This document shows, in pieces, positions 1 through 21,929 of a stretch of DNA of 22,322 nucleotides. Made by a program: the position numbers and the translations under genes. Where the stretch lies: contig QPGO01000005.1 in the NCBI GenBank assembly GCA_008632985.1, positions 1,199,607-1,221,928 on the forward strand, in the 5' to 3' direction. This stretch comes from Psammoneis japonica (lineage: Eukaryota). Under the pieces are notes generated by a model. It did not search any database and was not told the DNA's origin. It worked only from the letters and a program-made list of their open reading frames with translations. Numbering within the stretch: the first letter of the stretch is position 1; every line of letters begins with the position of its first letter.

Positions 1-2220
1 GATGGCCTGGTGCACTTTTTGTGCAGAAGCTGCACGAGAGCCAAGCATGTGCATTCCTGCACAGACACAGCACAAAAACAGAAAACAGAAAGCATGGCAC
101 GCCCATCAGCGACTCACGACAACACCACGTGATGACCATGCATCAAAATGGCGTCATCTGCATCTTTCTGTGGCTCCTCTTTCACTTGCCCGATTGCCCC
201 AAAAGGGCCAGGGAAAGCTTGCACACTTCTGTCATGATGGATCAATGCAAGCTGAAGTTGTTCTTTTCACTCCACAACATCAGAATGCAGCGCAACAGAT
301 TGTCAAGGCACGCCCGCATGTTGGCTGTGCTGTCAGCCAAATCAACACCATTTGCCATTCGCTCACTTGGCAAATTACAAAGCCAACGACTCTTGTTGGC
401 TGAAGCTCTTGAGCCACTTTTGAGACTTGACACAATGGCCCACTTGTCCCGTTCTTCACCCTCTGTGATTCATCAGAGGCGGCAATGCAGTGTTGCTCAC
501 TTTCCTTTGCAAATTTTGGAACACTGAATTGCACAAAAGTGCGTTGTTGTTGTTCAGCTTCAATTTCAATTTTAAGAGTCAAGTTGAATTTGTTGTTTCC
601 TTTTTGTGTGTGCAATTGTCACCTTTTTGTTTTGATTTAAATTCGCTGAAGACTTTCAACATGTGCTTCATTGTCGAAAAACAAGTTTTGTTTTGACGAA
701 TTTGTCGCACATGTGTCAAAAACCAACGAACCTCTTTTTGCACATGCCTTGTTTGAAGAGTGTCATTTGTGGCAACTTGCAATGATTGGCCAATGGCAAA
801 GGTGGTTGAACTCCATTTGTGCTTGATGCATCAACTTGGAGAGTGGGGGTCTGGGGTGTTTGTGCATTCCTTTGTGCTGCACAAGCCAAGCTGAGCCTCC
901 TGTGTTTGTGAAGGTCATTGTGCAGCTGCAAGGAATGTGTGCTTCATGGGTGGTGGCTTGTCTTCTGGGTTGCTTGGGCAGTTGGGGCATGCCAGCTTGG
1001 ATGGCATGGGAGGAATGGGAGGCATGAACTTCTTTTTTCACACCAGCTCTTCTCACACTGTTGGGAGAGGACCCTGCACAGCAGAGAAGCAGGGGTGCTT
1101 CTAGAAAGGGACAAAGACTGGCCTGGGCTTGCTCTGAGAAAAAAGTTTCTTGAAGCAGAAATGAGCCAGCTTTTTCCCAGCTGGTGTTCTCGGGGTTGTT
1201 CTCCAACTGGTGCAAGTGCTTTGGGCACACCACTTCAATGGCTTCACCACCAGCAAAGCAGAAGCAGTGACAATGAGGTGCCACAATTTTTCTGCACAAA
1301 ATCTGCCCCAGTGCACGTGCATCTCTGTTCGCACTCGAAGTTTTGGACAGCGCGCCTGCCCCATGCTGTTCTCAAAGACACTCGAGAATGGTGCAGAAGA
1401 AAAAAACGCCAAAAGTTGTTGAATGGATCGCCTGACAATTGTGCTGCAAAGCGATGCAAAATTTCTCCAAAATCACTCAGAAATGCACGTGCGCGACATG
1501 CGACGCGATTCAAAAAACTGTCGATGTCACAGTTCAGCAGTGCGAGGTCCCACCCAGACCTGGAGCGTGTCTGCCACGCTCTGCCACAATCTTCCTGCAA
1601 AAAATCCTCCCTCTTGCATTTCCTGGGTGCACTCCCTTCAGCATCTCCGTTCTTGGAGTTCCCTGTCGTGAAGTGCTCCAGGCATCTCGCGCACTTTCGT
1701 GCAAACAAGTCACGTGTTTCCAGGTTGTGAACTGCCTCACAGCCAAAAGAAGCAATCTTTGCCTTTGGAGTCACCATGATGCACTGGTCTGCCAAATCAA
1801 ACTCAGCATCACCATGGACAGTCGGGGAGAAATGTCATCAAAACTGCGTGATGATGTGTTTGAGCTCTTGAGAGCTCACCCAGCTTAAGACATCATGGCT
1901 CCAAGTCGCCGTGTTTGTCGTGAACTCTTCCTGATGCTGTGTCTGTGACTTGGCTTCATCGTTGAATTGCCGTGGCCATCGCACTTCAGAGATGACATTC
2001 TTGACAAGAAAAAGTGTCCCTGGGATGCCTCATGACAACGGAGACCCCACAGAACAAAAGAGCAGTGCAGAAAGAGAAATTGCGTGCAAACCAAACAGCC
2101 ACAAACATGCAAAGCCTCGACAAAACACACAGCACGAATGGCAGCGCACAAGGTTGGTCGTGGCGCAACAGAAGCAACGTTGTCAATGCGAACCTTCAAC
2201 AAGAATTTTTGCCACAATCT
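1..2220 (+). repeat. Tandem segmental duplication, copy 1 (cut by window start; unit ~2313 bp)
   Basis: Matches 2316-4533 at an offset of 2313-2315 (ORFs 242..433 vs 2556..2747; 1423..1671 vs 3736..3984). Ends at ...TTTTGCCACAATCT (2220). Confidence 0.95.
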
Positions 2221-4533
2221 GGTGATGCCGGTTGAGGACGTGCAAAACCAACAATTTGACTGCAATGTAAAAAGTTGACTCCATCATGATGCTCCATTTG
2301 AGAGGGCAGTCTGGAGATGGCCTGGTGCACTTTTTGTGCAGAAGCTGCACGAGAGCCAAGCATGTGCATTCCTGCACAGACACAGCACAAAAACAGAAAC
2401 AGAAAGCATGGCACGCCCATCAGCGACTCACGACAACACCACGTGATGACCATGCATCAAAATGGCGTCATCTGCATCTTTCTGTGGCTCCTCTTTCACT
2501 TGCCCGATTGCCCCAAAAGGGCCAGGGAAAGCTTGCACACTTCTGTCATGATGGATCAATGCAAGCTGAAGTTGTTCTTTTCACTCCACAACATCAGAAT
2601 GCAGCGCAACAGATTGTCAAGGCACGCCCGCATGTTGGCTGTGCTGTCAGCCAAATCAACGCCATTTGCCATTCGCTCACTTGGCAAATTACAAAGCCAA
2701 CGACTCTTGTTGGCTGAAGCTCTTGAGCCACTTTTGAGACTTGACACAATGGCCCACTTGTCCCGTTCTTCACCCTCTGTGTTTCATCAGAGGCGGCAAT
2801 GCAGTGTTGCTCACTTTCCTTTGTAAATTTTGGAACACTGAATTGCACAAAAGTGCGTTGTTGTTGTTCAGCTTCAATTTCAATTTTAAGAGTCAAGTTG
2901 AATTTGTTGTTTCCTTTTTGTGTGTGCAATTGTCACCTTTTTGTTTTGATTTAAATTCGCCGAAGACTTTCAACATGTGCTTCATTGTCGAAAAACAAGT
3001 TTTGTTTTGACGAATTTGTCGCACATGTGTCAAAAACCAACGAACCTCTTTTTGCACATGCCTTGTTTGAAGAGTGTCATTTGTGGCAACTTGCAATGAT
3101 TGGCCAATGGCAAAGGTGGTTGAACTCCATTTGTGCTTGATGCATCAACTTGGAGAGTGGGGGTCTGGGGTGTTTGTGCATTCCTTTGTGCTGCACAAGC
3201 CAAGCTGAGCCTCCTGTGTTTGTGAAGGTCATTGTGCAGCTGCAAGGAATGTGTGCTTCATGGGTGGTGGCTTGTCTTCTGGGTTGCTTGGGCAGTTGGG
3301 GCATGCCAGCTTGGATGGCATGGGAGGAATGGGAGGCATGAACTTCTTTTTTCACACCAGCTCTTCTCACACTGTTGGGAGAGGACCCTGCACAGCAGAG
3401 AAGCAGGGGTGCTTCTAGAAAGGGACAAAGACTGGCCTGGGCTTGCTCTGAGAAAAAAGTTTCTTGAAGCAGAAATGAGCCAGCTTTTTCCCAGCTGGTG
3501 TTCTCGGGGTTGTTCTCCAACTGGTGCAAGTGCTTTGGGCACACCACTTCAATGGCTTCACCACCAGCAAAGCAGAAGCAGTGACAATGAGGTGCCACAA
3601 TTTTTCTGCACAAAATCTGCCCCAGTGCACGTGCATCTCTGTTCGCACTCGAAGTTTTGGACAGCACGCCTGCCCCATGCTGTTCTCAAGACACTCGAGA
3701 ATGGTGCAGAAGAAAAAAACGCCAAAAGTTGTTGAATGGATCACCTGACAATTGTGCTACAAAGCGATGCAAAATTTTACCAAAATCACTTGGAAATGCA
3801 CGTGCACGACATGCGAAGCAATTCAAAAAACTGTCGATGTCACAGTTCAGCAGTGCGAGGCCCCACCCAGACCCACAGCACGTCTGCAGCGCTCTGCCAC
3901 AATCTTCCTGCAAAAAATCCTCCCTCTTGCGTTTCCTGGGTGCACTCCCTTCCGCATCTCCGTTCTTGGAGTTCCCTGCTGTGAAGTGCTCCAGGCATCT
4001 TGCACACTTTTGTGCAAACAAGTCACATGTTTCCAGGTTGTGAACTGCCTCACAGCCAAAAGAAGCAATCTTTGCCTTTAGAGTCACCATGATGCGCTGG
4101 TCTGCCAAATCAAACTCAGCATCACCATGGACAGTCGGGGAGAAATGTTGTCAAAACTGCGTGATGATGTGTTTGAGCTCTTGAGAGCTCACCCAGCTTA
4201 AGACATCATGGCTCCAAGTCACCGTGTTTGTCACAAACTTTTCCTGATGCTGTGTCTGTGACTTGGCTTCGTCGTTGAATTGCCGTGGCCATCGCACTTC
4301 AGAGATGACATTCTTGACAAGAAAAAGTGTCCCTGGGATGCCTCATGACAACGGAGACCCCACAGAACAAAAGAGCAGCGCAGAAAGAGAAATTGCGTGC
4401 AAACCAAACAGCCACAAACATGCAAAGCCTCGACAAAACACACAGCACGAATGGCAGCGCACAAGGTTGGTCGTGGCGCAACAGAAGCAACGTTGTCAAT
4501 GCGAACCTTCAACAAGAATTTTTGCCACAATCT
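2221..4533 (+). repeat. Tandem segmental duplication, copy 2
   Basis: Starts GGTGATGCCGGTTGAGGACG (same as 8090) and ends TTTTGCCACAATCT at 4533, after which the sequence differs from copy 1's continuation. Confidence 0.95.
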
Positions 4534-5096
4534 GCCCATGCAAACGTGGGTGTTCTCAAGCTTGTCTCGTGTGAGATGACACAATTGCACCGAGCTCCAT
4601 TGAGAGCATCCAGGTTCCAACCTCAGAGACAATCGCATTTGTCAATTTGGCGAAACGCCATTGTCCGTGCCATTTTGTGTGTCATTTTGAGCCGTGAGCC
4701 AGAAAACACTCCCAAAAACTGCTCTGCAGGGCAAAATGTGCTGAACCTGCACAGGTTTGGGTTGCACCAGGCCGCGCAGAAAGTGAGCGGGCCAAAAACT
4801 CCGGCGCACCCACCCAAACACATTCAACAACTGACTGACAACAGACTGGTTGACTGGCTTCCCAAGGCACCACTTGCATTGTGCCCTTCCCCAGCTGCTC
4901 TCCAGCTGGCACCGTGGAATGCAGTCATTTAATTTAGATTGTGTCTGCAACATCATTTGCAACAAACGTGACTGCCGCTTTTCACACATTGTCTGCCAAA
5001 CAGGTGTTGGCTCCAGCTCATGTGTCTCAGTGCAACCCACCATGTGGCTTTCCTCATCCCCCAACCCACTGCCCCCCTCCTCCACTTTCCTGTCAT

Positions 5097-5215
5097 GCTC
5101 TGCCACAATCTTCCTGCAAAAATCCTCCCTCTTGCATTTCCTGGGTGCACTCCCTTCCGCATCTCCGTTCTTGGAGTTCCCTGCCGTGAAGTGCTTCAGG
5201 CATCTCATGCACTTT
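5097..5215 (+). repeat. Dispersed partial copy of 1578-1697 / 3891-4010
   Basis: GCTCTGCCACAATCTTCCTGCAAAAATCCTCCCTCTTGCATTTCCTGGGTGCACTCCC... recurs; the minus-strand peptide HFTAGNSKNGDAEGSAPRKCKREDF is shared. Confidence 0.9.
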
Positions 5216-5281
5216 TCTCTCCTTTGCCCCACGTTCTTCATTGGGCAGGTTCTTGTTGTTCTGCAGCTCTGTCGTGACCAG

Positions 5282-6004
5282 CAAAATGGCCAAGGGCACA
5301 AAATCAAAAAGGACAAAAAATGTCTGTTGAGGGCACCAAATCACAAAGGGCACAAACCAGGCAGGGGCAAAAAATTGCTGAGGTCACAAAATGACTGAGG
5401 GTGCAAAATGGTGGCTGAGGGCACAAAGCTGCCAAGGGCAAAAAATCAGAAAGGGTCCAAAATGGCAAAGGGCACAAAACCACAATGGCCAAAAATTGCT
5501 GAAGGCACAAAATCATGAGGGGCACCAAATGCGGCTGAGGGCCCAAAGCCAAAAAAGGCACAAAATGGACAAGGGCACAAAGTCACAAAGGGCGCAAAAT
5601 GGCCAAGGGCACAAAACCACGAAAAGCACAAAATGCTCAAGGGCGCAAAAAAAGGAAAGGGCGCAAAACAGCCAAGGGCACAAAAAGGTCAAGGGCACAA
5701 AATCAAGAACTGCGCAACATGACTGAGGGCACAAAATCTCAATGGTGCAAAGTGGCCAAGGGCACAAAACAAAAAATGACAAAAAATGGGAGTTGAGGGC
5801 ACAAAATCACAAAGGGCACAAACTTTCCTGGGGCACAAAAAAAATCACTGAATGGAGTGAGAGTGCAAAATGGCAGCTGAGGGCTCAAAGTTGCAAAGGG
5901 CGCAAATTGGCCAAGGGCAGCGCAAAAGGCACAAAGGGCACAAAGTGGCCAACGGCAAAAAACCAGGAAGAGCAAAAGTGCAAAGTGGCCAAGGGCACAA
6001 AATC
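5282..6004. repeat. Degenerate minisatellite with core AGGGCACAAAA, spacing ~16-20 bp
   Basis: Dozens of GGGCACAAA/GGGCGCAAA cores joined by recurring short linkers (TGGCCA, TCACAA, TGACTG). Confidence 0.9.
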
Positions 6005-6429
6005 ATGAATGGAAAAATGGCGGTGGCAGCGGCAGCAGTTGTGCCACCCTTGTGACTCAAGATGTTGTCGCAGCTGCCCTCACGCTGTCATTGTTGCACT
6101 TTGCAAAAAAGCCAAGATGCAGTGTGCGAGGGGACAAATCGGTGAAATCCGTCTCTGCATCATGGGGAAGCCCATTTGTCCCCCATGATGCGCTCATCCT
6201 CGGCTCTGCATGTCGGGGGTCACAGCATGTTGGGTGAGCATGTCAACCTCTCTCCCCCAACACGCCATTCCCGTGCCATGCACGCTTTTGTTGACATGCC
6301 ACAGAAGCCATTTTGCTTGGCCTGGCTTCATCATGAGTGTTCTTTGATCCACAGCTGCAGGATGTCACCCTTTTTTGTGGCGTCCTCTTTTGTTGCTGAT
6401 GTGTCCACTCCACGTCAGCTCCATTTTTG

Positions 6430-6662
6430 TGGGCGCGACGCGTTCCAGGTCCAGGTGGGACCTCGCACTGCTGAACTGTGACATCGACAGTTTTTTGAAT
6501 CACGTCGCATGTCGCACACGCAGATTTGCGTCATTTTGCGGTGCACTTGTTGAGCGATCCATCCAACAACTTTTGACATTTTTTGTTGCAGCGCGATTCT
6601 ACAATGTCTTGAGAATGCGTGGGGCAGGTGCACTTGCAAAAACGTTGAGTGGCAAGAGGCAC
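6430..6662 (-). repeat. Inverted, diverged copy of 1315-1575 / 3629-3890
   Basis: GGGACCTCGCACTGCTGAACTGTGACATCGACAGTTTTTTGAATC at ~6457 is the reverse complement of ~1508-1552. Peptide WDLALLNCDIDSFLN appears in ORF 6375..6722(+) and ORF 1244..1795(-). Confidence 0.9.
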
Positions 6663-7100
6663 AATTGCACCACAAACTTGGCCGTTCATTTGATGTTGAA
6701 GACAAATGTGTCCATCAATTAATTCTGCTGCGGAGCTCGCACGCAGAATTCTGTGGGCCCAATGTCACACGGAGTCCCGCCTGGTGCTGGAGCGCATCGC
6801 GCATGCCTCCTCGTCTCCTTCCCTTGTGTTGCCGTCCGTGCCACCGGCGCTGCACTCCATTCTGCCCAAACACATGTGTTGTTTGAAGCAACAAACCCTG
6901 CTCTGCTTTCCCAAGGCATTTGCGGCAGTTGTCCCATTGGCTTTGCTCCAGTGCCCCCAGCGCCAAACACTTGCACCACAAATCTTGTTTGATCAGTGCC
7001 CTTGCCAGCGGGCTGTGTCCCTTCAGTGCCCCCCTGCAACACGCGGCGGGTCATGTGCAAAGATTGTCCTCGATTTAAAGACGCCTTTGGAGCTTCATGG

Positions 7101-7440
7101 AAGTGCGCAAATGCACAAGTGCGCAAACGCAGAAGTGCAAAAATGCAAAAATGCAAAAATGCGAAAAATGCGGAAATGCAAAAATGCAAAAATGCGGAAA
7201 TGCGGAAAGCGAAAATGCGGAAATGCAAAAATGCAAAAATGCAAAAATGCTGAAATGCGGAAATCCGAAAGTGCAAAAATGCGAAAATGCGAAAATGCGA
7301 AATGCAGAAATGCAGAAATGCGAAAATGCAGAAATGCAGAAATGCAGAAATGCAGAAATGCAGAAATGCAAAAATGCAAAAATGCGGGAATGCAGAAAAG
7401 CACGAAAATGCAGAAATGTGGAAATGCGAAAATGCAAAAA
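7101..7440. repeat. 8-bp tandem repeat (AAATGCRR)n, about 40 units
   Basis: AAATGCAA/AAATGCGG/AAATGCAG/AAATGCGA units in mostly 8-bp phase. Confidence 0.95.
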
Positions 7441-7491
7441 GGGCCAGGGTTGGGGTCAGGGTTGGGTTTGGGGCTGGGGTCAGGGTTGGGG
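7441..7491 (+). repeat. Degenerate interstitial telomere-type array derived from (TTAGGG)n, 8 hexamers
   Basis: GGG CCAGGG TTGGGG TCAGGG TTGGGT TTGGGG CTGGGG TCAGGG TTGGGG. The 6-bp phase is exact, and the TA position is TG or CA in every unit. Confidence 0.8.
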
Positions 7492-7494
7492 TTT

Positions 7495-8104
7495 GTCTCT
7501 GAATCTTTGGCACATGACATCTTGTCTGTCAACATGACAATGTTTTTTGTGTGTTGGTTTCATGACAAGGTGCTGTGCTCAGCAAATGTCCGCCAAAGTG
7601 CTGTGGCGGTGTTTCAAGCTCAAGACGAAATTGGTTGGAGACAGATTTTTGATGGGCGCTTCTCATCTTTGTGGAACAAAGCTCAGCCATCATGCTCGCT
7701 GTCAGCTGGATTGTGCCGCTCCTTGTCGAACATGGAAAAGCGCTCAGATTGGGCCGCTGCGATTGGCAGTTTTGTGTGGCCCCAATGGCGGGAACTCTCC
7801 ATGACGGCACTGCACATGGGCACAATTTGGGCACAAGAAAGTCCTCACAGCACCATGACGCCAAGGCCGAAGCACGAGCCATCCACTCCAAGGCAGACAT
7901 TGTTCAGCTTGCAATGGATCCGAGTTGCTCAGCTCAGCGGAGGAGCACCTCACTTGTTTGACCCACAGGTTGCACAGCTGGTTGGCCATGGCTCAACCAG
8001 TGTTCAAGTCAAGCATCCACGAAGCCTGGCATCTGGCAGCGAGGGGCACTGGCGCCACTGCAAGTTGTTTTGGCACAACATCACCTCAGGGTGATGCCGG
8101 TTGA
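7495..8104 (+). mobile_element. Decayed 3' end of a non-LTR retrotransposon ORF2 (diatom-type, possibly Ambal-like)
   Basis: AQDEIGWRQIFDGRFSSLWNKAQ...WAAAIGSFVWPQWREL, then after frameshifts HGHNLGTRK...ARAIHSK and EHLT...LHSWLAMAQPVFKSSIHEAWHLAARGTGATASCF...GDAG* (TGA 8102-8104). Matches, from memory, the Q-x2-IGW-x5-GR-x-S-x2-W...W...RN..HG...I.SYF C-terminal pattern of such elements. Confidence 0.7.
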
Positions 8105-10308
8105 GGACGTGCAAAACCAACAATTTGACTGCAATGCAAAAAGTTGACTCCGTCATGATGCTCCATTTGAGAGGGCAGTCTGGAGATGGCCTGGTGCACT
8201 TTTGTGCAGAAGCTGCGCGAGAGCCAAGCACGTGCATTCCTGCACAGACGCAGCACAAAAACAGAAAACAGAGAGCATGGCACGCCCGTCAGCGACTCAC
8301 GACAACACCACGTGACGACCATGCATCAAAATGGCGTCATCCGCATCTTTCTGTGGCTCCTCTTTCACTTGCCCGATTGCCCCAAAAGGGCCAGGGAAAG
8401 CTCGCGCACTTCTGTCATGATGGATCAATGCAAGCTGAAGCTGTTCTTTTCATTCCACAACATCAGAATGCAGCGCAACAGATTGTCAAGGTGCGCCCGC
8501 ATGTTGACTGTGCTGTCAGCCAAATCAATGCCATTTGCCGTTCACTCACTTGGCGAGTTACAAAGCCAACGACTCTTGTTGGCTGAAGCTCTTGAGCCAC
8601 TTTTGAGACTTGACACAATGGCCCACTTGTCCCGTTCTTCACCCTCTGTGTTTCATCAGAGGCGGCAATGCAGTGTTGCTCACTTTCCTTTGTAAATTTT
8701 GGAACACTGAATTGCACAAAAGTGTGTTGTTGTTGTTCAGCTTCAGTTTCAATTTTAAGAGTCAAGTTGAATTTGTTGTTTCCTTTTTGTGTGTGCAATT
8801 GTCACCTTTTTGTTTTGATTTAAATTTGCCAAAGACTTTCAACATGTGTTTCATTGTCGAAAAACAAGTTTTGTTTTGATGAATTTGTTGCACATGTGTC
8901 AAAAACCAACGAACCTCTTTTTGCACATGCCTTGTTTGAAGAGTGTCATTTGTGGCAACTTTGCAATGATTGGCCAATGGCAAAGGTGGTTGAACTCCAT
9001 TTGTGCTTGATGCATCAACTTGGAGAGTGGGGGTCTGGGGTGTTTGTGCACTCCTTTGTGCTGCACAAGCCAAGCTGAGCCTCCTGTGTTTGTGAAGGTC
9101 ATTGTGCAGTTGCAAGGAATGTGTGCTTCATGGGTGGTGGCTTGTCTTCTGGGTTGCTTGGGCAGTTGGGGCATGCCAGCTTGGATGCATGGGAGGCATG
9201 GGAGGCATGAACTTCTTTTTTCACACCCTGTGGCTGGCGGTGCCTCTCAGCAAAATGGCTGCAGATTGAGCAAATGCAGACACCCGTGCAGTGTTTCTAA
9301 ATTGCCTTTTTGTCTCTGGCTTTGGTGCAAGAGTGCACTCCCGTTGCCCAGCCAACTGTTGGGCACTGACCAAGAGTGACCCCCTCAACACTCCACTGTC
9401 CACAGATGAGTTGGGAAACTCAGAAAAGCTTGCCTCCACATCAACCTGACTGGGGCTGGAGTTGGGAGAGCCTGGCAGACCTGGAGACATGAAAAAACTC
9501 TTGGCTGGGGAGACTGCCTTGCCAAGCATTTGTGTGCTTTTCCTTCCAATGTGCGATGGAGACAACTGCAACACCCTGGCTGTTTTGGCTGGAGCTTGGC
9601 CAGCTCTCAACCCAAATGGGGAAAAATCTGCTTGAGCAGGAGAAGCTGACAGCCTGCCAAGGTTGGGAGGTGCAGAGCAGGTGCCTGTTGCTCTGCTCAC
9701 CATTGCAAGAGTGCCCCTTTGGTGCTGATCAAAACTCCATCCTGTCAAGCAAAAGCTTGGGCTGCACAAACTGAGAAAAGAAATCTTGCTGCTCTGGGGC
9801 TGGGCCATCATGCCCATCCTCAGGTTTGCTGTCTGAGGAACTCATGGTTGAGATGAGCAAGGTGCTCAAAAGTGTTGGTTGTGTTGTGAGGGCTGGAGTT
9901 GAGAGTTTCTGTTGAAAATGAAAATTTGGGCCGCCACGTCCGGCAGGTGGGTCAGACTTCCTTTTGCAAAAATGCAAAGAACAGAAAAAAGCTGCCAAGT
10001 TGAGATGGAACTCACCAAGCAGTGCTTGCACTGGGCTCAGCTCTTCTCGCGCTGTTGGGAGAGGACCCTGCACAGCAGAGAAGCAGGGGGGGCTTCTAGA
10101 AAGGGACAAAGACTGGCCTGGGCTTGCTCTGAGAAAAAAGTTTCTTGAAGCAGAAATGAGCCAGCTTTTTCCCAGCTGGTGTTCTCGGGGTTGTTCTCTA
10201 ACTGGTGCAAGTGCTTTGCGCACACCACTTCAATGGCTTCACCACCAGCAAAGCAGAAGCAGTGACAATGAGGTGCCACAATTTTTCTGCACAAAATCTG
10301 CCCCAGTG
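8090..10308 (+). repeat. Third, more complete copy of the duplicated segment, with ~810 bp (9228-10037) absent from copies 1 and 2
   Basis: 8090-9227 aligns to 2221-3358 and 10038-10308 aligns to 1044-1313. It diverges from copies 1 and 2 after CTGCCCCAGTG. Confidence 0.9.
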
Positions 10309-11323
10309 TCCTGTGGAAACAGCTTTCTGGGCAGAAAATTCCAGACACAAAATGAAAAAAAAACAAGTGCTGTTGAATTCTTTGTGTCACCTGAATTTCT
10401 GGTGAGTTTTGGTGAAGAGCAGAGAGGAGACAAGGAGTTGGTTGTGGCAGAAATGAAGCACCTGATGGTTGGTGTTGATTTGCTGTTTCAGGGTTTTGTG
10501 GTTCGGCATCATGCCAAAAGTCATGGACTCAATGCACAGTGTAGAAAGCAGTGCAGCATGCATTGGAGACAGTGGCAGGATTGAACAGAAAAGCTTGTTT
10601 TGAACTCTGGTTGCATGGACGTTGGTGCAAAATGTCACGCTGCAAACTTGTTTCCTTTTTTGCATCAATTTGGTCACAAAATCAGTGGATTCTACATGAC
10701 TTTGCACCAGCAGGAGGCCATTTGAAAATGATTTTAAGTGTGCAAAGGGGCAGCGCAAAAGGAGAAACAAGTGTGCTCTCAAGTGTGCAGTCGTTGAGCA
10801 AAAATCAAGTTCAAGTGTGTGAAACCCGGAAACATGTCATGCAGAGTCTGCAAAAGGAGCCAGTGCTTGCACACTTTCACGCACTTAAAATGCACTCATC
10901 TCACTTTGCTGCATCAACCTGAGCTGCCCACATGATGTCGTGTCAACTTGAGCCAACCCACATGACATGGCATTCTCCTGCAGAAGCACAGACAAAGACC
11001 AAAGGAAAACAAGAGGTTGAGAAAACAAAAAAGTGCGCTGGGTCAATGCAATCCATCAAAATGCCATGGAGTGATTCACCAAATGAGGGTGTGAGAATGA
11101 AGTGGGGCAGTGTGATGACAGAAGCAGTTTTTGTTCATTTTTGGACTTTCTCTCACACCTGTCTTTTCACAGATGCACTCATCAGAGCAAAACAAATCAT
11201 GTCATGCAATGGCATTGTTGGTGGGAAAAGATTTTGGTGGCAAAATCTGGCAATGGTTGATGATGCCATCATGGTGGCATCAGCGGTGGTTGACAGTTGG
11301 CAGTGGTGTGTTTTGAAATGGGA

Positions 11324-11640
11324 GGGGAAATCTGACCTTGTTTCATGACATTGCATGACGTTTGCCATGGTCCATGGTGTGCCAGAATCTGACATTGTGT
11401 TGGTGACATCAGCAGTCATGTGGAAACAGCATGAAAAATGAGCAACAGAGGGAAATCTGACCTTGTGTTGTGACATTGCATGACGTTTCACTGTGGTGAG
11501 CCAGAGCCCAACATTGTGGTGGTGACATCAGCAGCTGCATGAGAACAGTGGGAAAAACAAGCAACAGAGGGAAATCTGACCTTGCGTCATGACATTGCAT
11601 GATGTTTTGCCATGGTGAGCCAGGGTCTGACATTGTGTGG
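11324..11640. repeat. ~120-bp tandem repeat, about 2.6 units
   Basis: AAATCTGACCTTG..TGACATTGCATGA starts at 11328, 11453 and 11572 (spacing 125 and 119). Confidence 0.9.
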
Positions 11641-12552
11641 CACAGGCATCCCCACCGTGGCCACCGACGACGCCACTTTCCTGCATCTGCAGGCTGTCCG
11701 CAGCAATGCTGATCCTGCAGAAGCGTGCTGCAGAAAGCACGACTCCCAGTGCGAGACCTGCAATGGGCCACAGGAGTGACCCACATGACTGAGACCTGTG
11801 CAGCTGGCCATCGCGCAAGTGGCTTGCCTTGTGTGAAGGGTCTGCGCAGGATGCATGCAGCGCCAAGCATGAGCCTGTGAATTGGCTCCGCATGAGCATC
11901 AATCAAGTGTTGCAAAAGACTCAGGCTCAAATCTTTCCAATGACTCATCATGTAAAAAGAACTCCCATTTCTTGGAAAAAGACACCATCGTGCATCTGCA
12001 CTCTAGCCAGCTAAAACAATCTCACAATTTTTGCACACACACAAAACAAATCTCCATCTCTGTGGTTCAAGTGCTTGTCCCCCATTTCTGCATGGGTCAA
12101 CTGCAGCCATGACATTGCAGCATGTGTCAAAATGGGGGGGAAGTGATTGCCAACTGCCAAGGTTTCATTGCAGCCAACACAAGCCATGAAAACTCTCATC
12201 TAAAATGAGGGCATGCTTGCTGAAATGTCCAGACAGGAACACATCAAAATGTGGCTGTTGATTGGAAAAAGTTTTGTGTGACATGGCCAAGTGGAGATGT
12301 GTCAACATGAGGGAGGTTTGGGAGTGAAGTCACTTGAGACGGTGCTCCCCTGACATGGACACCCAACATGAGGGACTCCCTTGAGATCAAGTCCCTTGCA
12401 ATGGAAAAACACCCTCAAACTGTGAAAAGTCTGGTTAAACCCATTTCCTGTGTGCTGCTGAGAGATGGGGAAAGCCAGTCCGCTGTCTCAAGCATTTGAG
12501 CCAGACACCAAACCAAGTTGCTGCATTGAGTGCAAAGGGACCCCTCCAAGCA

Positions 12553-12950
12553 ATCAAGTGGCATGTGGGCACATCATTTGCAGTGCTGCATCCAGACTTT
12601 ATGAGCTGCACAAGAGGGGCTGTGACCACAAGCAATGGAGCAGTGCAGGCTGCATTGAAACACCAGAAGCTGAGCACCCAAAGCAGCACAGAGGCTGAAC
12701 TTGTGGGAGTCAATGATGCAATGATGATGACTCTGTGGATGAAGTTGTTGTTCGTGGAGCATCAGGTGCATCTAATTGACAAGAACAATGTCCTGCATCA
12801 AGGCAACAAGAGTGCTGGGCCATCAGAAGCTGCAATCTCAGAGCACAGCATTGTCCAGCCAATGACGTGCTTGTTGGAGTCCTCTTGACTGAGAAACCAT
12901 TGCAGGGCAAGAAGTTTTGAAAGCTCAAATGAGACATTGCGGGCTGTTGA
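12553..12950 (+). mobile_element. Decayed Ty1/copia (CoDi-like) pol RNase H C-terminal fragment
   Basis: IKWHVGTSFAVLHPDFMSCT...QKLSTQSSTEAELVGVNDAM..TLW..LF.EHQVH...NVLHQGNKSA, then QHCP..D......KPLQGKKF*KLK*DIAG. Recalled copia consensus: WYVDASFAVHPD.KSHTG...KQKLNT.SSTEAELV..DD......W...F.E.QGY....ILYQDNKSA...EYCPT.EM..DF.TKPLQG..FRKFR..I.G. Confidence 0.92.
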
Positions 12951-15900
12951 CTTTGAGCATGACAAAAGCAGCTCCTGTTTGTGACATCAGACAAGAACTC
13001 CGATGCACGTGGGCAAAAGATCCCTGCAACCCAGAAAGGGTCATGAGCCACACAGTTCAGCCAGCTGCACTTCAGAGCATCATCAGCCATGAACAAACTT
13101 GGATGAAAATGAGTTTGCTTTGCAGCACAACAGTGTGGTGGCCCAGCAATGGCTGTGGGACTGCTGCTCTGGAGCAAGTTTCACAAACTTGCAGACTTGG
13201 CAGGAGATGAAAGATGAGTGGTTGTGGACAAGGATCATTGTGGCAGAGCATCAAAAGAGCCAATGAAATGGATCAGAAGCAGCAAGATGAGGTTGACTCA
13301 ACCCATGTCTCCACCATGATGTCACAGACCTGTCTCATGTTCTGGGAGACATCATTGATGAAACAAAGAGAGACTCTGCAGACACACCTTCCTGTTGGCT
13401 GTTGGGGGGGAACCAGGCAATGCTTTGGTTTTGTGGCAAGACCCGCAGATGAATGGGTGCCAGTTGATGAAGGAGGTGGACAAGGAAATGCAATGAGAGT
13501 GGAGTCTTGAAGTGCACAAATGTGTGTCTGCTGTCACACCAATGTTCTCCATCCACAATGATCTGAGGAGAGCATCTGAGATTCAACATCATGATTGCAA
13601 AGCACACAAAGACCAAAGAACATTGGCAAATCATGGGAGGCCAAGCCGGGGGGCAAGATGAGCTGTGTTGTTGCAGACAACACAATGATGGCAAGGAGCA
13701 CATGAGAAATGAGTGCGCCACCAGATCAATGGACAATGAGTGTTGCAGCTGGCCCTGGAAAAGAGCAACATCTGTGACCCATGCAAGATGTTGAGCATCA
13801 GTTTTCCCACCTGTGGTGCAGACAAATGTGGAGCATGTGGTCCCTTTGTGGGTTGTTCTGCTGTGGAATGGAGTTCTTTGATTTGACTCCTGAGATGGCC
13901 AGCGGTTGGATTGTGGACCTGATTGATGGCTCAAACAGCAAAGTTGCAAAAGAGGAGATTTTGTCATGCTTGTGTGGAGCATTTTGTGGAGTGTGTCACC
14001 CTTGTTTGACTGCATGGTTGATCACTCTGATGATGGGCAGCGCACCAGCTTGCACATTTCTGAGTTGCAGGGTGTCAGCTGCAGGGCAAGAGGTGAACAT
14101 GACACCAACTTGCTTGGTCACTGCACCAGATGGATCTGTTTTCCTCAATGTCAGCCAGACCTGTCTGGCCAGCAAAACATTGATGCAAGTGGCAAGAGTG
14201 CATTGGAAGGAGCCTGGCTTTCTCTCAGATCACCATGGCCAATGTTGAGCTCCCGGGGCCTGTCTTTTTGAGTGGCTTGACTGCACTGGCCCACAGCCAT
14301 TGTTGTCACACTGGCACCACTGTGCTGCACAGGCATTGTTTCAGAAGGCAAAAAACAATGTGTGCTGCTTGGTGTGGTGAGTGAAATCAAATTGTCTGAT
14401 TTGTGCTCATGCTTTGTTGCACTGGAACTCTGTCAATGGGCCAAAGAACAGGCACTCCTGCTGGGTGTTGTAGGGTGCTCACTCAAGATCCAACAGCCCC
14501 CCTGTTGTTGTTGACAGCACCATTTGTCGGCTTGTGACTGAGTGCATGTTTAAAAGTGGCATGACCAGCTGCTCTTCACTGCTCTCTGATGGTCTGTTTT
14601 GTCCAAGTTGGCAACAAACAGACACAGGAGAGGATGACAGCTGCAGCTTGGTCACACACTGCACCCACACTCAGCATCAGATTGATGTGCCAAGCGGCAC
14701 ATGCAGAGCTCTCGTCCTTTCAAATGGTCTTGCCATGTGGCAACTTCCTGCCTCTGCAGATTTGGAAAACAAGGGGACACTGGGATGGAGCCACCCAGCA
14801 TGTGCACAAATGCTGGTGGCAACTGGCATGACAAATTGTGCCCCGAGCTGCAGCACTTCAATCTGATGAGCTGCCATCACCTGCCACCTGCTCCTGGCCA
14901 AGGCTGTCAAACTTAAAATGCTGGTGCAAAATGGCTCCTCCTCCTCATGTTTCAAACAGCTGACACCACCTGTGGCAGAGCTGCAATGAGCACAGTGTGA
15001 CCCTGCCAAAAAAGTCTCAGATGCTGGCACGCCAATGTCCACACTGTTGTTTGATGACAGAAGCCCTCCCACTTTGGCAAACAACCTCAGAGCACTTTGC
15101 AGAGATGCAGCCAGCCAGCTTGCTTTTTGACAAATGTGTCTGAGTTCAAACCAGTGGCACTCACACTGCAAGCTGAGGAAAGTGGAAAAATTGGGACAAC
15201 TCCACTGTGTGAGAAAGAAGTGCACTGAAATCTGCAAAAGCAGGCAATTGCTGCAACCATGTGTGGCTCTTGGAGCCTGGCAGGTTTTGCAATCTTTCTT
15301 GTGTTGTTCTGTTTTTTCAACATTTTCAAAAAGCCACATCATGGCAAACCTTCAAGAACCTGCCTGGAAGGTTCAATGCCATTGTGCAATGAGCTGTGGC
15401 CAACACCATTGCTTGGCACTCCTCTCTTTCTGTCAACCACACACTTGGCAGAACATTCCTCTGGGCCCTTGATTTCTCAGCTTTGTGGCTTTGCAAACTT
15501 CCAAATTTTGATGCCAGCACCAGCACCATGTTTGCTCTCCAATGGGAACTGTCATGTCAGGATTTGGCATCATTGCTGAAACAAAGTTGTCATTTTCATC
15601 AACCCAGACAGACAAGAAAGGAAGGTGGGCACATTCCATCCCCAGCCAACTCAAAAAAATGGTGGGAGGGGTGCCATTGACCCAGTGCTTGTGCAGCAAT
15701 GGCATGGGCATGTGGCCTTTGCAGCTGAGTGCAAGAGAAAAAGGCTCACTTTCATGGCAAGCACAGTTCTTCTTCAAGCTCTGGGAGGCATTTTCCCCTG
15801 TCATTGCTGTGCAGGAAATCCCAGCATCAGCAGCACGGGGTTTGCCCCCAAAGTGTCAGCAAGCACTTCAAACCCAGTGTGTCAGCAAGCACTGTTGAAG

Positions 15901-16980
15901 TCACTGCCACATTGACTGTGCATCTCCAGTTTGGAGAGAACTTCTCTTGAAGAGAGCCTGATGCTGGCAAGTTTGACCTTGGGAAAACCTGCACATGCCC
16001 CACGGACACTGCCACCTTGATGATGCACTCTCTGGCCGTGCTGGAAGAAGATCCCAATGTCTGTGTTCCAAACGTTGGTGAATTTGAGAAAGGCACTGTG
16101 ACAAAATGAAGGCATTGCAGACTTTGCAGACTGCCATGATCTGCTTGCTTCAGTGCCCATGTGTCATGACAATTGGCGGTGTGACACATCTGCATCAAAG
16201 AAAGCAGAGCTGAGAAGCCATCAACCAAAACAATTCATTCATGATTTTTTTTAGAAAAGAAGAGCTGAGCATGCCAAAAGTGGCAGTGCTGTGCAAGCAG
16301 CACTTGGTCTGTCTTTTGTGCCAGAAGCTCAGCTCAGGGAGAACAAAGGAGATTTTTGGAGGTGTGCCAAAGTCCCTGACTGGCTCAAACTCCATGATCA
16401 AGTTCTCTGTCCATTTGCAGGTTGGCCAAGAAGGTGTCACAAAGCATGCATCTTTGAAGATCCCGCAAAGGATGGCATGGTTTTGGGCAGCTGCTCTTTC
16501 AAAAGAAATTGTCTGAGCCACTCAGATGTGATGGCATCTTGGTTGGGCTGCTGTTGCACCACTGATGATTGTGAGGTTCTGTGGGCTCTCCTCATGCTTG
16601 CGCACAAAGTGGGCAACACTGTTTGCTGCATTTGTGTTCTCTTTAGAACAGCAAAAACACAAGACAACTGCAGAACAATTTTCTTGGGACAAAAAAATCT
16701 TCTGTCCAAATCTCAGGTGGAAGTGGCACTCCTTGTCCACCAGAGAATGGCAGGGGAACAGAAAAAAGAAAGTGCCTTGGCTGCACCCATTTTCCAGTGG
16801 AGCATGGAAAGAATCCAAGAAGTGACATCTGAGCTGCTCACAATGACATGTGTCCCTGCAGGGGCCAGCCATGAGAAACTTTGACCCATGTCTGTTTGAC
16901 CTTGATCACCGCTGCTGCACACCAAAGGAGTCAATGGTCACGGCCCATCTCTGAGGATCAAAGGCATGCTGGGCAACATG

Positions 16981-17150
16981 AAAGTGAAGGCTTGTTCCAA
17001 TCATGGGTGCAACTGCTTTGGGAGTTGGCCAAAGGCATTGCTGGGGTGCTCCAGCTGCAGAAAGACCATCACTGCTCAGCAGACTGCCAGGTGAAAGACT
17101 GGAAAGAGGGTGGCCACAAGAAAGCATGTAGAAAGAAAGAGCAAACTGCA
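16981..17150 (+). pseudogene. Decayed MYND zinc-finger gene fragment; upstream ORF 16291..16884 is in frame with its N-half and may belong to it
   Basis: KACSNHGCNCFGSWPKALLGCSSCRKT, frameshift, then HCSADCQVKDWKEGGHKKACRK. Fits MYND pattern C..C...CxxC....YCSxxCQxxxW...HKxxC with the conserved Tyr read as His (CAC 17070-17072). Confidence 0.85.
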
Positions 17151-17669
17151 CGCCAACACGTTCATGAGAGCAGCTTTCCTTGCTTCATGACAATGACAAG
17201 CAACAACCAATCATTGCAACTCTCATGCTTTTGTTTCCACCACGATGTGTGAACTCATTTGCAGAACCAAGAGATGTGCTTTAATTCTCTTGCTTCCAGC
17301 TTCAGTGGTGAGGCTTTCTCCAATCTTGCTGCAGAGCCAGATTGAATTTGGACCTGTCCACAGATCCGTCTTCACCAGCTTGGCACACTCTTCAGGTGCA
17401 AGGAACAACTTTTGTCTGCCAAACTGACGCACAGTGCTTGCATCCAAACATGTCACAAATGGCATTGCCAGGCACTTCAACACTGGGACAATGATCTGTT
17501 CCTGGCTCTGAGGGGGTCAAAGTCCACATTTGTTGTCAAAACGCAATGACACCCTCACAACGTCAGACAGTTGAGCAATGCAATCCATTCAATTGCTGTT
17601 CCCTCACTCAAAAAAACAAGCACCCCTGTGCCATCTAAGATCCCTGCAATCAATCTGAAAAGACTTGGC

Positions 17670-18125
17670 GCACCTTGTGATCCAGGCGGACATCCAGCAC
17701 CCTTCTGTGTGGTTCAATGCCATTCAGCTCTTGAGCGGCATTCTCCACATTGCTCTTCTGATGGAGTTGTGTGGCACCAAATCCTTTCTTCCTGCCATCT
17801 GTGGTCTCCATGACTTTGGCTCATTTCACATTGCCACATGTCCCAAAGTGATCCTTGAGATCTTGCCAAGTGGTGCTGCAGGAAAGGTTTCCAACAAAAA
17901 GTTGGAAACCGCTGCTGCCACCACCATGTCCTCTGCTTTGGTGTCCACCTTGAGAATGTCCACCACTGCCTCCAAATTGGTTTTGGTCTTCACAAATGGA
18001 AATCTCACATCCATTGAGCTCTGAATTCTGAAGCTCACAAATGGCCCTTGCAGCCTGTTGTGGGTGCTGACAAACAACAACTCCACAACCAATCAAACGT
18101 CCATCATGGTCACTGAGCATTGATG
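17670..18125 (-). pseudogene. Decayed fragment of a Gbp2/hnRNP-M-like multi-RRM RNA-binding protein gene
   Basis: GRLIGCGVVVCQHPQQAARAICELQNSELNGCEISICED, Gly-rich linker, QLFVGNLSCSTTWQDLKDHFGTCGNVK*AKVMETTDGRKKGFGATQLH...AAQELNGIEPHRRVLDVRLDHK. RNP2/RNP1 motifs are present, and the frame continues through an in-frame TGA (17821-17823) where Arg is expected. Confidence 0.88.
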
Positions 18126-18360
18126 CCTGCATTTGCAAAGAGATGCAGAGGCACCAGGTTCAGCAACCTCAAAACAAACAAAACAAAGTTGCAATGATCA
18201 TTGCCTGTGAAACCAACCTGGTCAATGTTTCCAGCTGCATGCATGTGATCTTTTAGAGTCTGCCAGTGTGCATTGCAGGGCAGGTTCCAAACATGCCCTG
18301 AAGTCCCCTGACAACAGCCTCCGCCATTGCAAAAGCCACCAGTTGCTCCACTGCTTGTCT

Positions 18361-19330
18361 CTCAGTCTTGCCATCCACTGCAGTTTCTTGAAACTCACAT
18401 GACCAAATTGTTGGTGGCATTTTAGGAGTGGTGATGCCCCAGCAGTTCCTTGGTGGTGCTCTTCATCCTTTGCCACCATTGGTGGCTCAGAGACTTTGTC
18501 CTGCACCACAGTTGGTTTGAGGTTGAACTTGGCAAGTTGTCCATGTCTCCCTCATGCTTGCCACTCATCTTTGGTCTGTCTGAGTCAAAAACTGCTGCTG
18601 TCAAAAACTGCTGCTGTGGACCCATCACCTTTCCCAGGAGCCAACTCTGAGTCTTGCAATTGGTTTTGGCCTGTGGGTTTTCATTCTCTGTGCAGCACTT
18701 GCATTTTCTCCCTCAGCCTTGTCTTGGTCCTCATTGTCACTTGCAGTGGTGGCCTCTTTGGCAGGTGCAGCATCCTTGACTTTGTGCACTGGGTCAATGT
18801 CAGCCTTGGCACAGAATGCCTTGCACATCTGATGTTGTGGTTCCAAGTGAAATGTTGCCACATTGCTCATCTCACTCACTGGCACAGGTCGGTGTTTCTT
18901 CTGGCTCATCCAACAGAGGGCACCTGCTTTGAGTCAGTCTTGCTGCCAGCCCCTCTTCTCTGAATTTGTCATCCCACTGGGTTTTAGCCCGGTGTTGAGG
19001 GCTGCACAACGTGACCTTCCTGCTTGGTGAGCAAAACAAGTTTGGCATCTTGAGCTTGTGTGCTCCACCTTCATCATCATTGCACCTCTTCAGCAGGGTG
19101 CTGACCTTGACTCCTGTTGCTTGAGAACCATCTGAAACCTTTTGTGGTCCTGTTGCAATCTTGCAGTTCACAGATGAAGTCTTCTGCACAATTGGATGTG
19201 CAACCTGCAGCCTGATTGTCAACTCTGACTGGTCCAGAATCAGTGTCAAAGGCCACTGTGTGCTCCAAGATGCTCTTGTGCTGAGCTTGCATTGCCGCCA
19301 CAACCACAGCCAATGCTGCGGCACAATGTC
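18361..19330 (-). mobile_element. Decayed Ty1/copia (CoDi-like) polyprotein fragment: protease region to GAG-pre-integrase
   Basis: Across frameshifts: VAFDTDSGPVRVDNQAAGCTS..AEDFI.EL.DCNRTTKGF, VKVSTLL...DDEG.AHKLKMPN.....KVTLCSPQH, SNVATFHLEPQH...AFCA, LLKCHQQFGHVSFKKLQWMARL. These match recalled FDTDS..IG.DN, LLSPQHW, NVATF and H.RFGH.SF.KL..MA motifs. Confidence 0.85.
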
Positions 19331-19764
19331 CTGATTGCTTTGGGCTCTTGAGCTTGTCTGTGGACTGGCAGAGTCTTTGGATCCCCCCTCTTCTGTGCAA
19401 GTCAGCTTCAATGGAGTGCGCAACTGGCAAATGCAATGGGCAATTGACTTTCCTCAAACATCAGGAAACTGGCATGAGAACACCTCAATCTGATTGGATG
19501 ATTGGCTTGCAAGACACAATGAGAGGGAGTGTGAAGATTGTCAAATCATCGTGACAGTCATTGTGCCTCACCATTTTGATGACTTGTGTCATCAGGGCCA
19601 GCATCATTCAAAACACTCCAAAGAGAGGATGCACTGCATGCAGTCTCTAGAGAGCTTCCTCTCCTTACAATCTCAATTTAGTCGCTGCAACACCAGCACC
19701 TGGAACCACCCCAATTGCCCCAATGTCCTTTGTTCATCACCACACTTTCTCTGTTGACTTTGCT

Positions 19765-20593
19765 CTGGACATCACAACACTTGATGGCCCATCAACATTG
19801 GGTCTTGTGTGTGAGTGCAGCAAGAGTCTGGCATTGTCTGGCATGGGTCAAATCACAATGCTTGCAAATGATGATGCCAAAACAGGGCCAGAAGATGTGC
19901 ACCACAACAAAGAGCTGGACAACTCAGGTCGGGGATGTTAAAAAGCTGCTCAATCAGCCAGGTGTTGAGGTGGAGGAGGAGACTGATGAGACTGATGTTC
20001 TTGTGAATTGTTTGCATGGATTGAACCCTTCTGTTTGTGTTTCAAAAATGATTGGATCACAATTGAAAGAGAGACAAGATGCAGAGGGTGGGATGCTTGC
20101 ATGCATGGATCACCCAAACTCCACTCAAATGAATCTGAACTGTGTTTGCCGTGAAAAGAGCATGCCTTTTGTTGCCTCAAAGACTGCAGGCATGTGCGGA
20201 TGCACATTTTGTGACTTCAGTCCCCCTTTGTTTCAAGCAGTTGGCTCCAATGGTGAAACTCCACTCATCATGCCGCCAGGTCATGTCAAGACAGTGGGAG
20301 ACAAGCCAAAGGTTGGATGTCTCAAGGGCAAAAAACATGATGTTTCCAAGGGTGGCAAAATTGTTTTCTGGCTTGGGAATGGCAGCAAGAAGATGCCAAG
20401 TTGTTGCATGGTGATGGGCGCCCTCAATCTAACAACTTTTGCCACTCTGTTGGAATCAACTGAGGGAGTCCCAGAGACTGACCTGGTCAACAAAATCAAT
20501 GACAATGCACCATGCTTCAGCCGAGCTAAAATTCTCACCTCAAAAAGTTGCATTCAAGCTGCTGGAAAAAGGGGGACAAATCTGCGGATCTGA
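19765..20593 (+). pseudogene. Decayed ubiquitin-activating enzyme E1 (UBA1/ThiF-family) N-terminal fragment
   Basis: GLVCECSKSLALSGMGQIT (cf. G...E.AKNL.L.GV), frameshift, then L.GLNPSV.V and LNCVCREKSMPFVASKTAGMCGCTFCDFSPPLF....NGETP (cf. N..CR.....F......G..G..FCDFG..F...D.DGE.P of UBA1). Confidence 0.75.
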
Positions 20594-21929
20594 CTCTGTC
20601 CATTTTGTTCCCCGGCACTGTGTGAACAGACCAGGTGGCTGCCAATGCATTGTGCGAAGTGGAGGCATCAGAGCCAGCCAGAAAAGAGAAAAAAATGGAG
20701 TTGAAACCAGAGCTGGAACCCCCACCACAAAACGTGGTGGGGGCCCATGCTGGAATCAAAAACAGTCAAACAGGTCAAATTGAGTCATGACACCACATCA
20801 TGCGTGCATCTCCAAGAATGGCCATGACAGCAGTGAACCCATCCAATGAGGTTGAGGCTTTTGAACAAATGCTGGCACACTGTCATGAATGTGGGCAGTT
20901 GTGTGCCATTGGCGATTGGTCCACTGTTGCTTGTTTGGTGGTCCCAGCAGCATGGCATCTCACAATTCTAGAACCTGTTGATGCTGTTCAACACTCTGTT
21001 TTGTCTTGCACCCAATTCTCAGCTGTCATGGCAGCATTTGTTCACTTCATCAGAGCCAATGCACTGTGATGTTCATCACCTGGAATGGGCATTGTGAACA
21101 GTGCAACAGTGTTGTTGCGATTGATCAATTTTTGTGGTGAGTGCCATGTTGGTCCCATGGTTGCTCACACAATCGCTGAGTCCTTTACATGCGTTGATGT
21201 TCATGCGCATGAATGACATGCTCCAGGAGGCCAGAGCTGCAATCCGTTGGACATGACATTGAGAAATGAAATGTTTGATCCCATGAATGGAGTGTGCAGG
21301 CTAAGACATGCAAACATGCATGAGAGAAGGTTGACATGACAATTCATGTGTGGAGGTCTGTCATTTGACCATGTGCATTTGTTCAAGCAGAATCCGTTGA
21401 CATGACACCTGCACACTGCACATGTGGATGCATGCCTGTTGGAAATTGTTGCTCAGAAGTCACCTTGCCTGCTCGCAGGTTCGCTGAGCAGAAATTGCCA
21501 AAGCGACACAAGAAACACACAAATCTCCTCTCACACAAGTGCATCAGAGTGCACGAAATGTCAAAAATGTGAAGATTCACACAATGACAATTTGTCGAAA
21601 TGTTGCAAAAAATTGTTGTCATGCAATGACAGGCCAACCTCTGGTCACAAGTTTGCTGTGCCAACACTGCAATGACTTGCCAAGAATTGTGTGTGCCATT
21701 TTTCACTGTGTCCACATCACTGCATCTGCCTCCACCTTGTTGCCATGTGCCAATGCATGGTTGCATTGCCGCACAATCCTTGGTTTGTCAATTTTTGCAA
21801 ACATCATTTTAAACAAGAAAAGCATTTCATCGGTTGGGTCAATCCCTTGTTGCATCTGCAGTGCAGTGACCGAGTGCCATGTTAACTGTGCACACATTTT
21901 CTTGCTGCAACTCTCTCAAACCAAGCCAA

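Follow-up and report, generated by a model that had tools for sequence, protein, structure and literature searches.

TpA hypermutation has been described in Bigelowiella natans, where it strikes integrated DNA of nucleocytoplasmic large DNA viruses and virophages (Mettrop et al., bioRxiv 10.64898/2026.01.13.699255). That preprint proposes, without demonstrating it, that an adenosine deaminase is responsible; the rate, measured in lines, was raised ~1,000-fold, and the process was active in some lines only (10.64898/2026.01.13.699255). Here, we analyze a 22,322-nucleotide stretch of the diatom Psammoneis japonica (the window), which forms the final 22 kb of contig QPGO01000005.1 (C1) in a 91-Mb assembly. 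A homolog search with a C1 gene gave at least 120 matches, and all seven with a legible organism name appear to come from diatoms. The window contains a 51-bp array of altered telomere-like hexamers within repeat DNA that has lost nearly all of its TpA. We conclude that the array is probably the relic of a former chromosome end, a judgment that covers its ancestry, the direction of change, and the order of events and leaves the enzyme aside. The array alone is a minor and inherited feature, and the weight of the argument rests on chromosome ends elsewhere in the genome.

A probable telomere-derived array in TpA-depleted DNA

A first-pass annotation of the window had described eight in-phase hexamers derived from TTAGGG, and these are present as listed at 7444-7491, with TG at positions 2-3 in five units and CA in three. 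A run of at least three such hexamers appeared in none of 300 dinucleotide-preserving shuffles of the window, and the real run is eight. Its G-rich strand is directed to the end of C1, ~14.8 kb off. The absence of TA is a property of the whole window and not peculiar to the array, which is one instance among many: observed/expected ratios (o/e) are 0.04 for TpA (60 sites in 22 kb), 1.72 for CpA, 1.82 for TpG, and 0.30 for CpG, and AA is enriched (1.36). The lack of surviving TTA units in the array (0/8) is non-significant by itself, with p ~0.15 at 21% survival of TTAG/CTAA. Sampling along C1 reveals two states, in which TpA is either ~0.45-0.75 with CpG near 1, in gene-bearing kilobases, or mostly 0-0.1 with CpG 0.05-0.9, in repeats. 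The switch between them occurs within ~1 kb, and other loci are likewise bimodal for TpA.

Converted repeats are joined to intact telomeres

TTAGGG has been reported in Thalassiosira and Phaeodactylum (PMC3622300), and four contigs of this genome end in it with the G strand outward. Among units flanked by GGG on both sides, a count from which irregular units are excluded, distal TTA units number 85/85 on C108, 67/67 on C297, 145/147 on C531, and 103/103 on C536. With 400/402 distal units in total and no TCA, TTAGGG is the terminal repeat, as the first-pass annotation had supposed. One telomerase RBD gene is present, an open frame of >1,000 codons in normal DNA. In the last 120 bases of the C108 tip (L031), six units carry T in place of the first G, either a read error or a distal variant.

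Two other contigs, C56 and C275, terminate in ~500 and ~450 bp of variant units. These 134 units comprise 75 TTG, 35 TCA, 14 CCA, 5 CTG, and 5 others, so that 129 are converted (80 TG and 49 CA units), and TTA, TCG, and TGA are each absent (0/134), with a single CCG. The probability of 0/130 survivors at 21% survival is ~3e-14 if units are independent, which holds incompletely. The suggestion that variants would be restricted to TTGGGG and TCAGGG beside intact telomeres is borne out in part: the two dominate, and the distal telomeres are intact, but the first T is C in 20/130 converted units.

The two kinds of repeat meet at C536, where 16 converted units are followed by intact repeats up to the contig end and the switch occurs within one unit, near position 8922. 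The units of the window array thus belong to a set that is physically continuous with terminal TTAGGG, as would be seen for an interstitial relic. C108 and C531 also begin with converted units, with one survivor in the first twelve of C531. Partial conversion is seen in the arrays at C87 and C36 and in those first C531 units; no mixed converted and intact zone was found in the readable consensus at the ends. The C87 array (L063:3891-3955; G000:C87:90890) lies exactly on the edge of a TA-free domain, where within 300 bp the TA count drops from ~8 per 200 bp to zero. A genome-wide match search returned no TCAGGG directly before TTAGGG and five matches for TTGGGG directly before TTAGGG, one of which, on C3, is surrounded by normal DNA and seems coincidental.

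These junctions bear on two other origins of the array. The first-pass annotation had itself raised an ancestral TCGGGG unit that decayed at CpG, which would yield identical TG and CA products and would suit both the CpG depletion of the domain and an array with no intact copy. TCG is nevertheless absent from the 134 converted units, which include one CCG, and converted units abut TTAGGG at C536, while the two kinds are intermixed at C87, C36, and C531. The C536 junction, these mixtures, and the absence of TCGGGG identify TTAGGG as the ancestral telomere unit and exclude TCGGGG decay for the telomeres, and we give such decay almost no credence for the array.

Ordinary telomere variation is the other origin, in which proximal repeats escape turnover, mutate at background rates, and spread by slippage or recombination. 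Human proximal telomeres are described as rich in TTGGGG, TCAGGG, and TGAGGG (PMC3919612), slippage and common variants are seen among the array copies here, and this process may cause the two-zone layout and the sharp edge under any mutagen. However, the 134 units include neither TGAGGG nor surviving TTAGGG, and flanking non-telomeric DNA shows the same TA loss, as do 37/40 sites in the gene copy described below. Telomere variation is therefore improbable, being largely excluded as the sole cause.

Other converted arrays occur in the genome. A second family (L065:1454-1556; L093, minus strand, 5034-5129; L097:4214-4312) has one common flank after unlike upstream DNA on C297 and C110, and further families are found at C214, C133, C36, C180, and C67.

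Direction and specificity of TpA erasure

The window carries a polarized control for direction, a duplicated copy of part of a multi-RRM gene that we take to be Gbp2/hnRNP-M-like. The parent gene at C185 is intact, while the duplicate is TA- and CG-erased. Across an alignment of 1,120 columns, the 40 scorable parental TAs became TG (19), CA (18), or another dinucleotide (2), and one is unchanged. Transitions at other sites affect 20/440 A/T and 24/401 G/C positions, and the difference between TA and other A/T bases is significant (p 4e-21). Parental CpGs read TG or CA at 49/58 sites. The reverse change, from parental TG or CA to TA, occurred at 1/146, and transversions at TA are rare (2/40 sites). 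An outgroup comparison of a related retroelement frame points the same way, with 12 conserved Tyr columns reading Cys 6, His 1, Trp 1, Phe 2, and Tyr 2.

The direction from TA to TG or CA that had been proposed for the array thus holds, both where converted units run into TTAGGG and at 37/40 TAs in the gene copy, and TG and CA products in the array and the gene copy alike confirm that both strands were changed. A:T to G:C change at TpA, on either strand, is directed to domains across repeat-rich DNA and spares genes. It is not exclusive to TpA, as seen in a weaker A-to-G change at non-TpA sites before a pyrimidine and in the first-position change noted above. The intact parent and erased copy appear to fit domain targeting better than mutual pairing, and a duplicate erased beside an intact source need not harm that source.

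The gene copy also bears on whether the change arose in RNA. RNA editing fixed by reverse transcription would be in keeping with the retroelement fragment 60 bp from the array and with two PF02137 deaminase genes in the genome, and errors in the telomerase template could likewise alter telomere units. Both strands are changed, however, within one array and in the gene copy, which retains its apparent intron and downstream flank. The retained intron and flank, together with change on both strands, place the process at the DNA level, and the distal tracts (400/402 TTA, no TCA) speak against template errors. Either origin in RNA is very unlikely.

Base-calling and assembly controls

A base-calling or polishing artifact in repeats could mimic part of this pattern. 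Nanopore sequencing is reported to miscall CCCTAA as CCCTGG, the complement of one variant seen here (10.1101/2022.01.11.475254), and G-run lengths in the long arrays look error-prone. We compared the assembly with sequencing run X1, which holds 82% of sampled words of window 11000-20000; its library type is unrecorded, and it may be the assembly's own data. X1 contigs at a depth of ~53-59 nonetheless agree with the TA-free sequence where it is single-copy, differing at 0-4 positions per 490-830 bases (2/655 in the gene copy). Identical arrays recur at separate loci, and identical contexts yield different products within arrays, which likewise argues against an artifact. As a general cause, it is scarcely credible. 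The X1 comparison covered single-copy parts, and an artifact may contribute to the CCAGGG count of the arrays at contig ends. At 7401-7770, 40 of 113 differences were listed and none falls in 7441-7491, which is not proof of identity there, and X1 depth over this interval is a sum over copies and not usable as copy number. Runs X2 and X3 contain nearly no sampled window words. One X1 contig of depth 8 has, between stretches that match the array (window 7453-7466), units of seven bases in which TA is intact; it stems from another organism or a minority form.

Erasure preceded copying of the block

The block that carries the array is present in 13 arrays (12 parsed and a thirteenth seen at C189). 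The two at C502 form a tandem duplicate, and some of those located on small contigs could be alleles. CA occupies unit 1 and TG occupies unit 2 in 13/13 arrays, and the TG/CA order of the window array is matched at all eight positions in five copies. Copies are 92-94% alike over ~570 bp, and the same pairs differ between TG and CA at 0-3 of ~125-133 sites and between CG and TG/CA at 16-20 sites. Few TG/CA differences and common variants indicate that TA erasure preceded copying. The erasure happened a single time, in the ancestral block, which was later copied to 13 or more places. Eight independent events in 51 bp (five TA to TG and three TA to CA), as the first-pass annotation had counted, are therefore rejected: the variants are common to the copies and inherited, and eight is an upper bound that belongs to the family ancestor, some units of which may be slippage duplicates.

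A search for an unconverted copy of the element came up empty: 40 of 70 candidates were scored, and TpA o/e is <=0.10 at each of the 30 loci that the DNA search returned. In ten elements distantly related to the retroelement fragment, the matching part is likewise TA-depleted. The junction that leads into the array finishes with A-A-G-G-G, like those at the ends of C108 and C531. De novo telomeres in Magnaporthe are described as additions onto a short seed (PMC7367193), and the junction would fit telomere addition of this kind, judging from few cases. Copies of the adjoining 8-bp satellite that lack the array occur in upstream units of C1 and on C3, C52, and C400.

Sequence context and candidate chemistry

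We measured survival by context in 241 kb of depleted DNA relative to 88 kb of normal DNA. TA survival is 0.34 in TTAA, 0.21 in TTAG, 0.11 in CTAG, and <=0.11 in the rest, down to 0 in ATAT, so TTAG, which the first-pass annotation called relatively resistant, is indeed the second most resistant context. A four-rate model based on the base 3' of A, fitted on dispersed DNA (T 3.1, C 2.0, G 1.05, A 0.52), reproduces all ten context counts. For TTAG, it predicts 67% TG; long arrays have 80/129 (62%; p 0.26 against the model and 0.008 against 50%), and the window array has 5/8. Private non-TpA A-to-G changes in repeat copies occur at 113/5,789 copy-sites before a 3' pyrimidine versus 53/9,453 otherwise (~3.5x) and are rarest after a 5' A (43/5,281), and in the gene copy they occur at 18/200 versus 2/240.

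Adenine deamination in silent chromatin is the chemistry we favor, as a tentative choice that falls somewhat short of an even chance. TadA-derived editors are reported to prefer YAY and disfavor AAA, and this preference resembles the 3'-pyrimidine preference and 5'-A avoidance seen here (PMC10188366). DNMT5 is reported to CG-methylate transposons in Phaeodactylum (PMC9998398).

The genome has an ADAT2-like exon at C26 and a TadA-like gene at C38, names assigned tentatively by motif; ADAT2/TadA-like genes are universal. It also holds a dCMP-type deaminase, two PF02137 adenosine deaminase genes (L131/L132, G000:C79:344558-345390; L130, G000:C40:112674-113392), and a frame that combines a zinc deaminase domain with a 2OG-Fe(II) oxygenase (L127:319-1791, minus strand). 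One PF02137 gene is presumably ADAT1; the second, at C79, would be a paralog and is a candidate for the process.

A different chemistry acting through the same history is possible, though we rate it below even our tentative choice. The T of TpA could be modified (for example, oxidized) to pair with G, or error-prone repair could follow methyl-CpG mismatches. CpG decay in the same domains makes it likely that they undergo methylation and repair, the symmetry between strands leaves either base of the pair as the one attacked, and no deaminase stands out. Transversions at TA, however, number only 2/40. Polymerase eta prefers the WA motif, and error-prone repair by a process like it should favor AA; here, AA is enriched (o/e 1.36), and the rate after a 5' A is the lowest.

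A proposed two-zone telomere and order of events

Telomerase would have added TTAGGG to a break in the 8-bp satellite, most of the tract would then have been lost, and other DNA, including a truncated retrotransposon end, would have been joined beyond it. A domain-directed TpA process would have erased the TA steps of the array once, before the block was copied, as the common variants show. The same process probably rewrote the inner parts of terminal arrays to TTGGGG and TCAGGG, as seen on C536, and left the outer 0.5-1.0 kb as pure TTAGGG. That outer zone may stay intact through renewal by telomerase or through end chromatin that excludes the mutator. A TadA/ADAT-type enzyme, drawn to silent chromatin that is CpG-methylated, would turn adenine into inosine by deamination, a step that we put forward with the same reserve as the chemistry itself. 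We lean, by a modest degree, toward telomeres with two zones, in which a repeat-silencing TpA mutator erases TTAGGG from the inside as far as a sharp boundary, and TTAGGG stays only in an outer 0.5-1 kb that telomerase renews or that is protected.

Several observations weigh against this reading, and the first group concerns the ends themselves. The junction is fully visible only once, at C536; each of the four capped ends has part of its array masked by runs of N, which leave the width of the converted zone there unread. C56 and C275 stop before any intact repeat, and C1 may stop short of a chromosome end. In contigs >100 kb, 7/7 arrays lie within ~42 kb of a contig end and 6/7 are directed to it, the exception being the C181 array, which faces the other way; these ends may be uncapped, and repeats are places where contigs commonly break. 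None of the 13 array copies keeps TTAGGG, so the ancestral state of the array itself is inferred from the telomeres.

The remaining points concern the mutation. The sequence cannot distinguish an attacked A from an attacked paired T, and the deaminases in the frames examined show neither expansion nor fusion to a chromatin reader, with none tied to the process. Array units are non-independent owing to slippage, which weakens the agreement of 62% with 67%. In the gene copy, the choice of strand departs from the rate model, with 14/28 sites in agreement and a likelihood worse than at 50:50; Cys:His of 6:1 at the Tyr columns agrees with the model, so the strand-choice picture is mixed. CCAGGG makes up 14/49 CA units and CTGGGG 5/80 TG units (p 0.0008). 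Leak outside TpA may account for both variants in kind but not for the excess of CCAGGG, and homologous arrays that differ at the first base alone indicate that leak can follow the TA change. A sequential-context explanation of the excess is unsupported (GAC 19 versus AAC 18 per 1,000), and the excess may come from paired hits on one strand or from a base-calling share.

If two-zone telomeres of this kind exist, the cue for the mutator would be silent chromatin and not foreignness, telomerase would mend what the host's defense has damaged, and the edge would mark either how far the mutator reaches or how long the telomere was at the most recent mutagenic episode. An edge one unit wide at a chromosome end renders targeting directly testable. 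Telomere repeats serve as a reporter with a known ancestor in one fixed context and give direction, strand balance, and leakiness without an outgroup. Searches for TTAGGG miss converted relics, and domain searches miss elements whose TA has been erased.

Other features of the window

The features discussed above are collected in Table 1.

Table 1. Coordinates of the array and associated features in the window
Feature	Position	Strand	Description
Telomere-derived array	7441..7491	+	GGG plus eight in-phase hexamers, all TA steps converted
TpA-erased repeat domain	1..22322	.	Entire window; runs ~26 kb further upstream in C1 to a boundary near C1:1,173,500
8-bp satellite	7109..7440	+	41 copies, no TA; adjoins the array
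~60-bp linker	7492..7551	+	Common to array-bearing copies; partly deleted in the C189 copy
Non-long-terminal-repeat (non-LTR) retrotransposon open reading frame, 3' end, 5'-truncated	7552..8100	+	Broken and TA-depleted; corresponds to the final ~250 residues in endonuclease-reverse transcriptase proteins of 1,900-2,000 aa
Duplicated copy of C185:97845-99881	16342..18363	-	3' half of an apparently intron-bearing RRM gene plus flank

Pfam assigned no family to the retroelement frames, and the homolog search gave their identity instead: by tblastn, 59/77 long homologs match 7555-8071 (best E 1.6e-10). These homologs carry PF03372 and, in some cases, PF00078 or PF13966, and relatives of the element diverge from the window upstream of 7552. 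An Atlas search for the retroelement frame gave only a 0.90 RVT_1 lead with ~115 shared features. Across 44 window frames, Pfam returned two matches, neither from a mobile-element family.

A 17-bp satellite occupies 5282-6020, and tandem units of 2.3-6 kb that are 92-99% alike extend over the last 50 kb of C1, including window 1-10500 (L086-L088). At 21541-22322 on the minus strand, an open frame encodes the end of an acidic, lysine-rich protein, with related DNA found close to the telomere of C531 and to the end of C56. These relatives hint that C1 may stop in subtelomeric DNA.

Comparison with known systems

The process in B. natans is the closest match, with A:T to G:C change at TpA on both strands, confined to regions, and with TpA-poor, CpA/TpG-rich windows (10.64898/2026.01.13.699255). 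TpA loss there is partial (Rho 0.45 in the viral region), whereas it is near-complete here (0.04), and the targets there are viral, whereas here, in a diatom, they are retroelements, satellites, a host gene copy, and telomere repeats, accompanied by CpG decay (10.64898/2026.01.13.699255). Change in B. natans is described as exclusive to TpA, in 231 events over a short time in which leak could escape notice, in contrast to the leaky pattern here; the main text of the preprint makes no mention of telomeres, diatoms, or CpG (10.64898/2026.01.13.699255). That host sequence is affected bears on the defense against foreign DNA that the preprint proposes (10.64898/2026.01.13.699255).

Repeat-induced point mutation (RIP) among ascomycete fungi is similarly described as restricted to repeats, with dinucleotide-specific transitions on both strands and genes spared (PMC2621366). 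It changes C:G to T:A, mostly at CpA, and creates TpA, whereas TpA is destroyed here (TpA 0.04 and CpA 1.72, with 1/146 TG/CA sites becoming TA) (PMC2621366). RIP as a class is thus rejected on its defining direction. RIP depends on pairing, a sexual cycle, and a RID-type methyltransferase.

Human proximal telomeres share a degenerate inner zone with TTGGGG and TCAGGG and a canonical outer zone made by telomerase; unlike them, the converted ends here have no TGAGGG and 0/134 canonical units, and the same change extends through the surrounding repeat DNA (PMC3919612). MoTeR relics in Magnaporthe resemble the array in that a short tract of telomere repeats lies where a non-LTR element is truncated at its 5' end, inside segmental duplications, but the element here belongs to a dispersed endonuclease-reverse transcriptase family with many interior copies (PMC7367193). 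No telomere tract was seen after the 3' end of the fragment, and its relatives lie in contig interiors, unlike a MoTeR-like element that targets telomeres.

Within the open-licence PMC and bioRxiv literature, we found nothing published on the loss of TpA from diatom repeats or telomeres. The two-zone telomere layout is already known from humans, and its complete conversion by a genome-wide repeat mutator was not found in that literature. This analysis adds a two-zone telomere with a sharp edge, together with the order of events, and a type of repeat-directed mutation described to date in a single unrelated alga seems to extend to the telomeres of the host itself.
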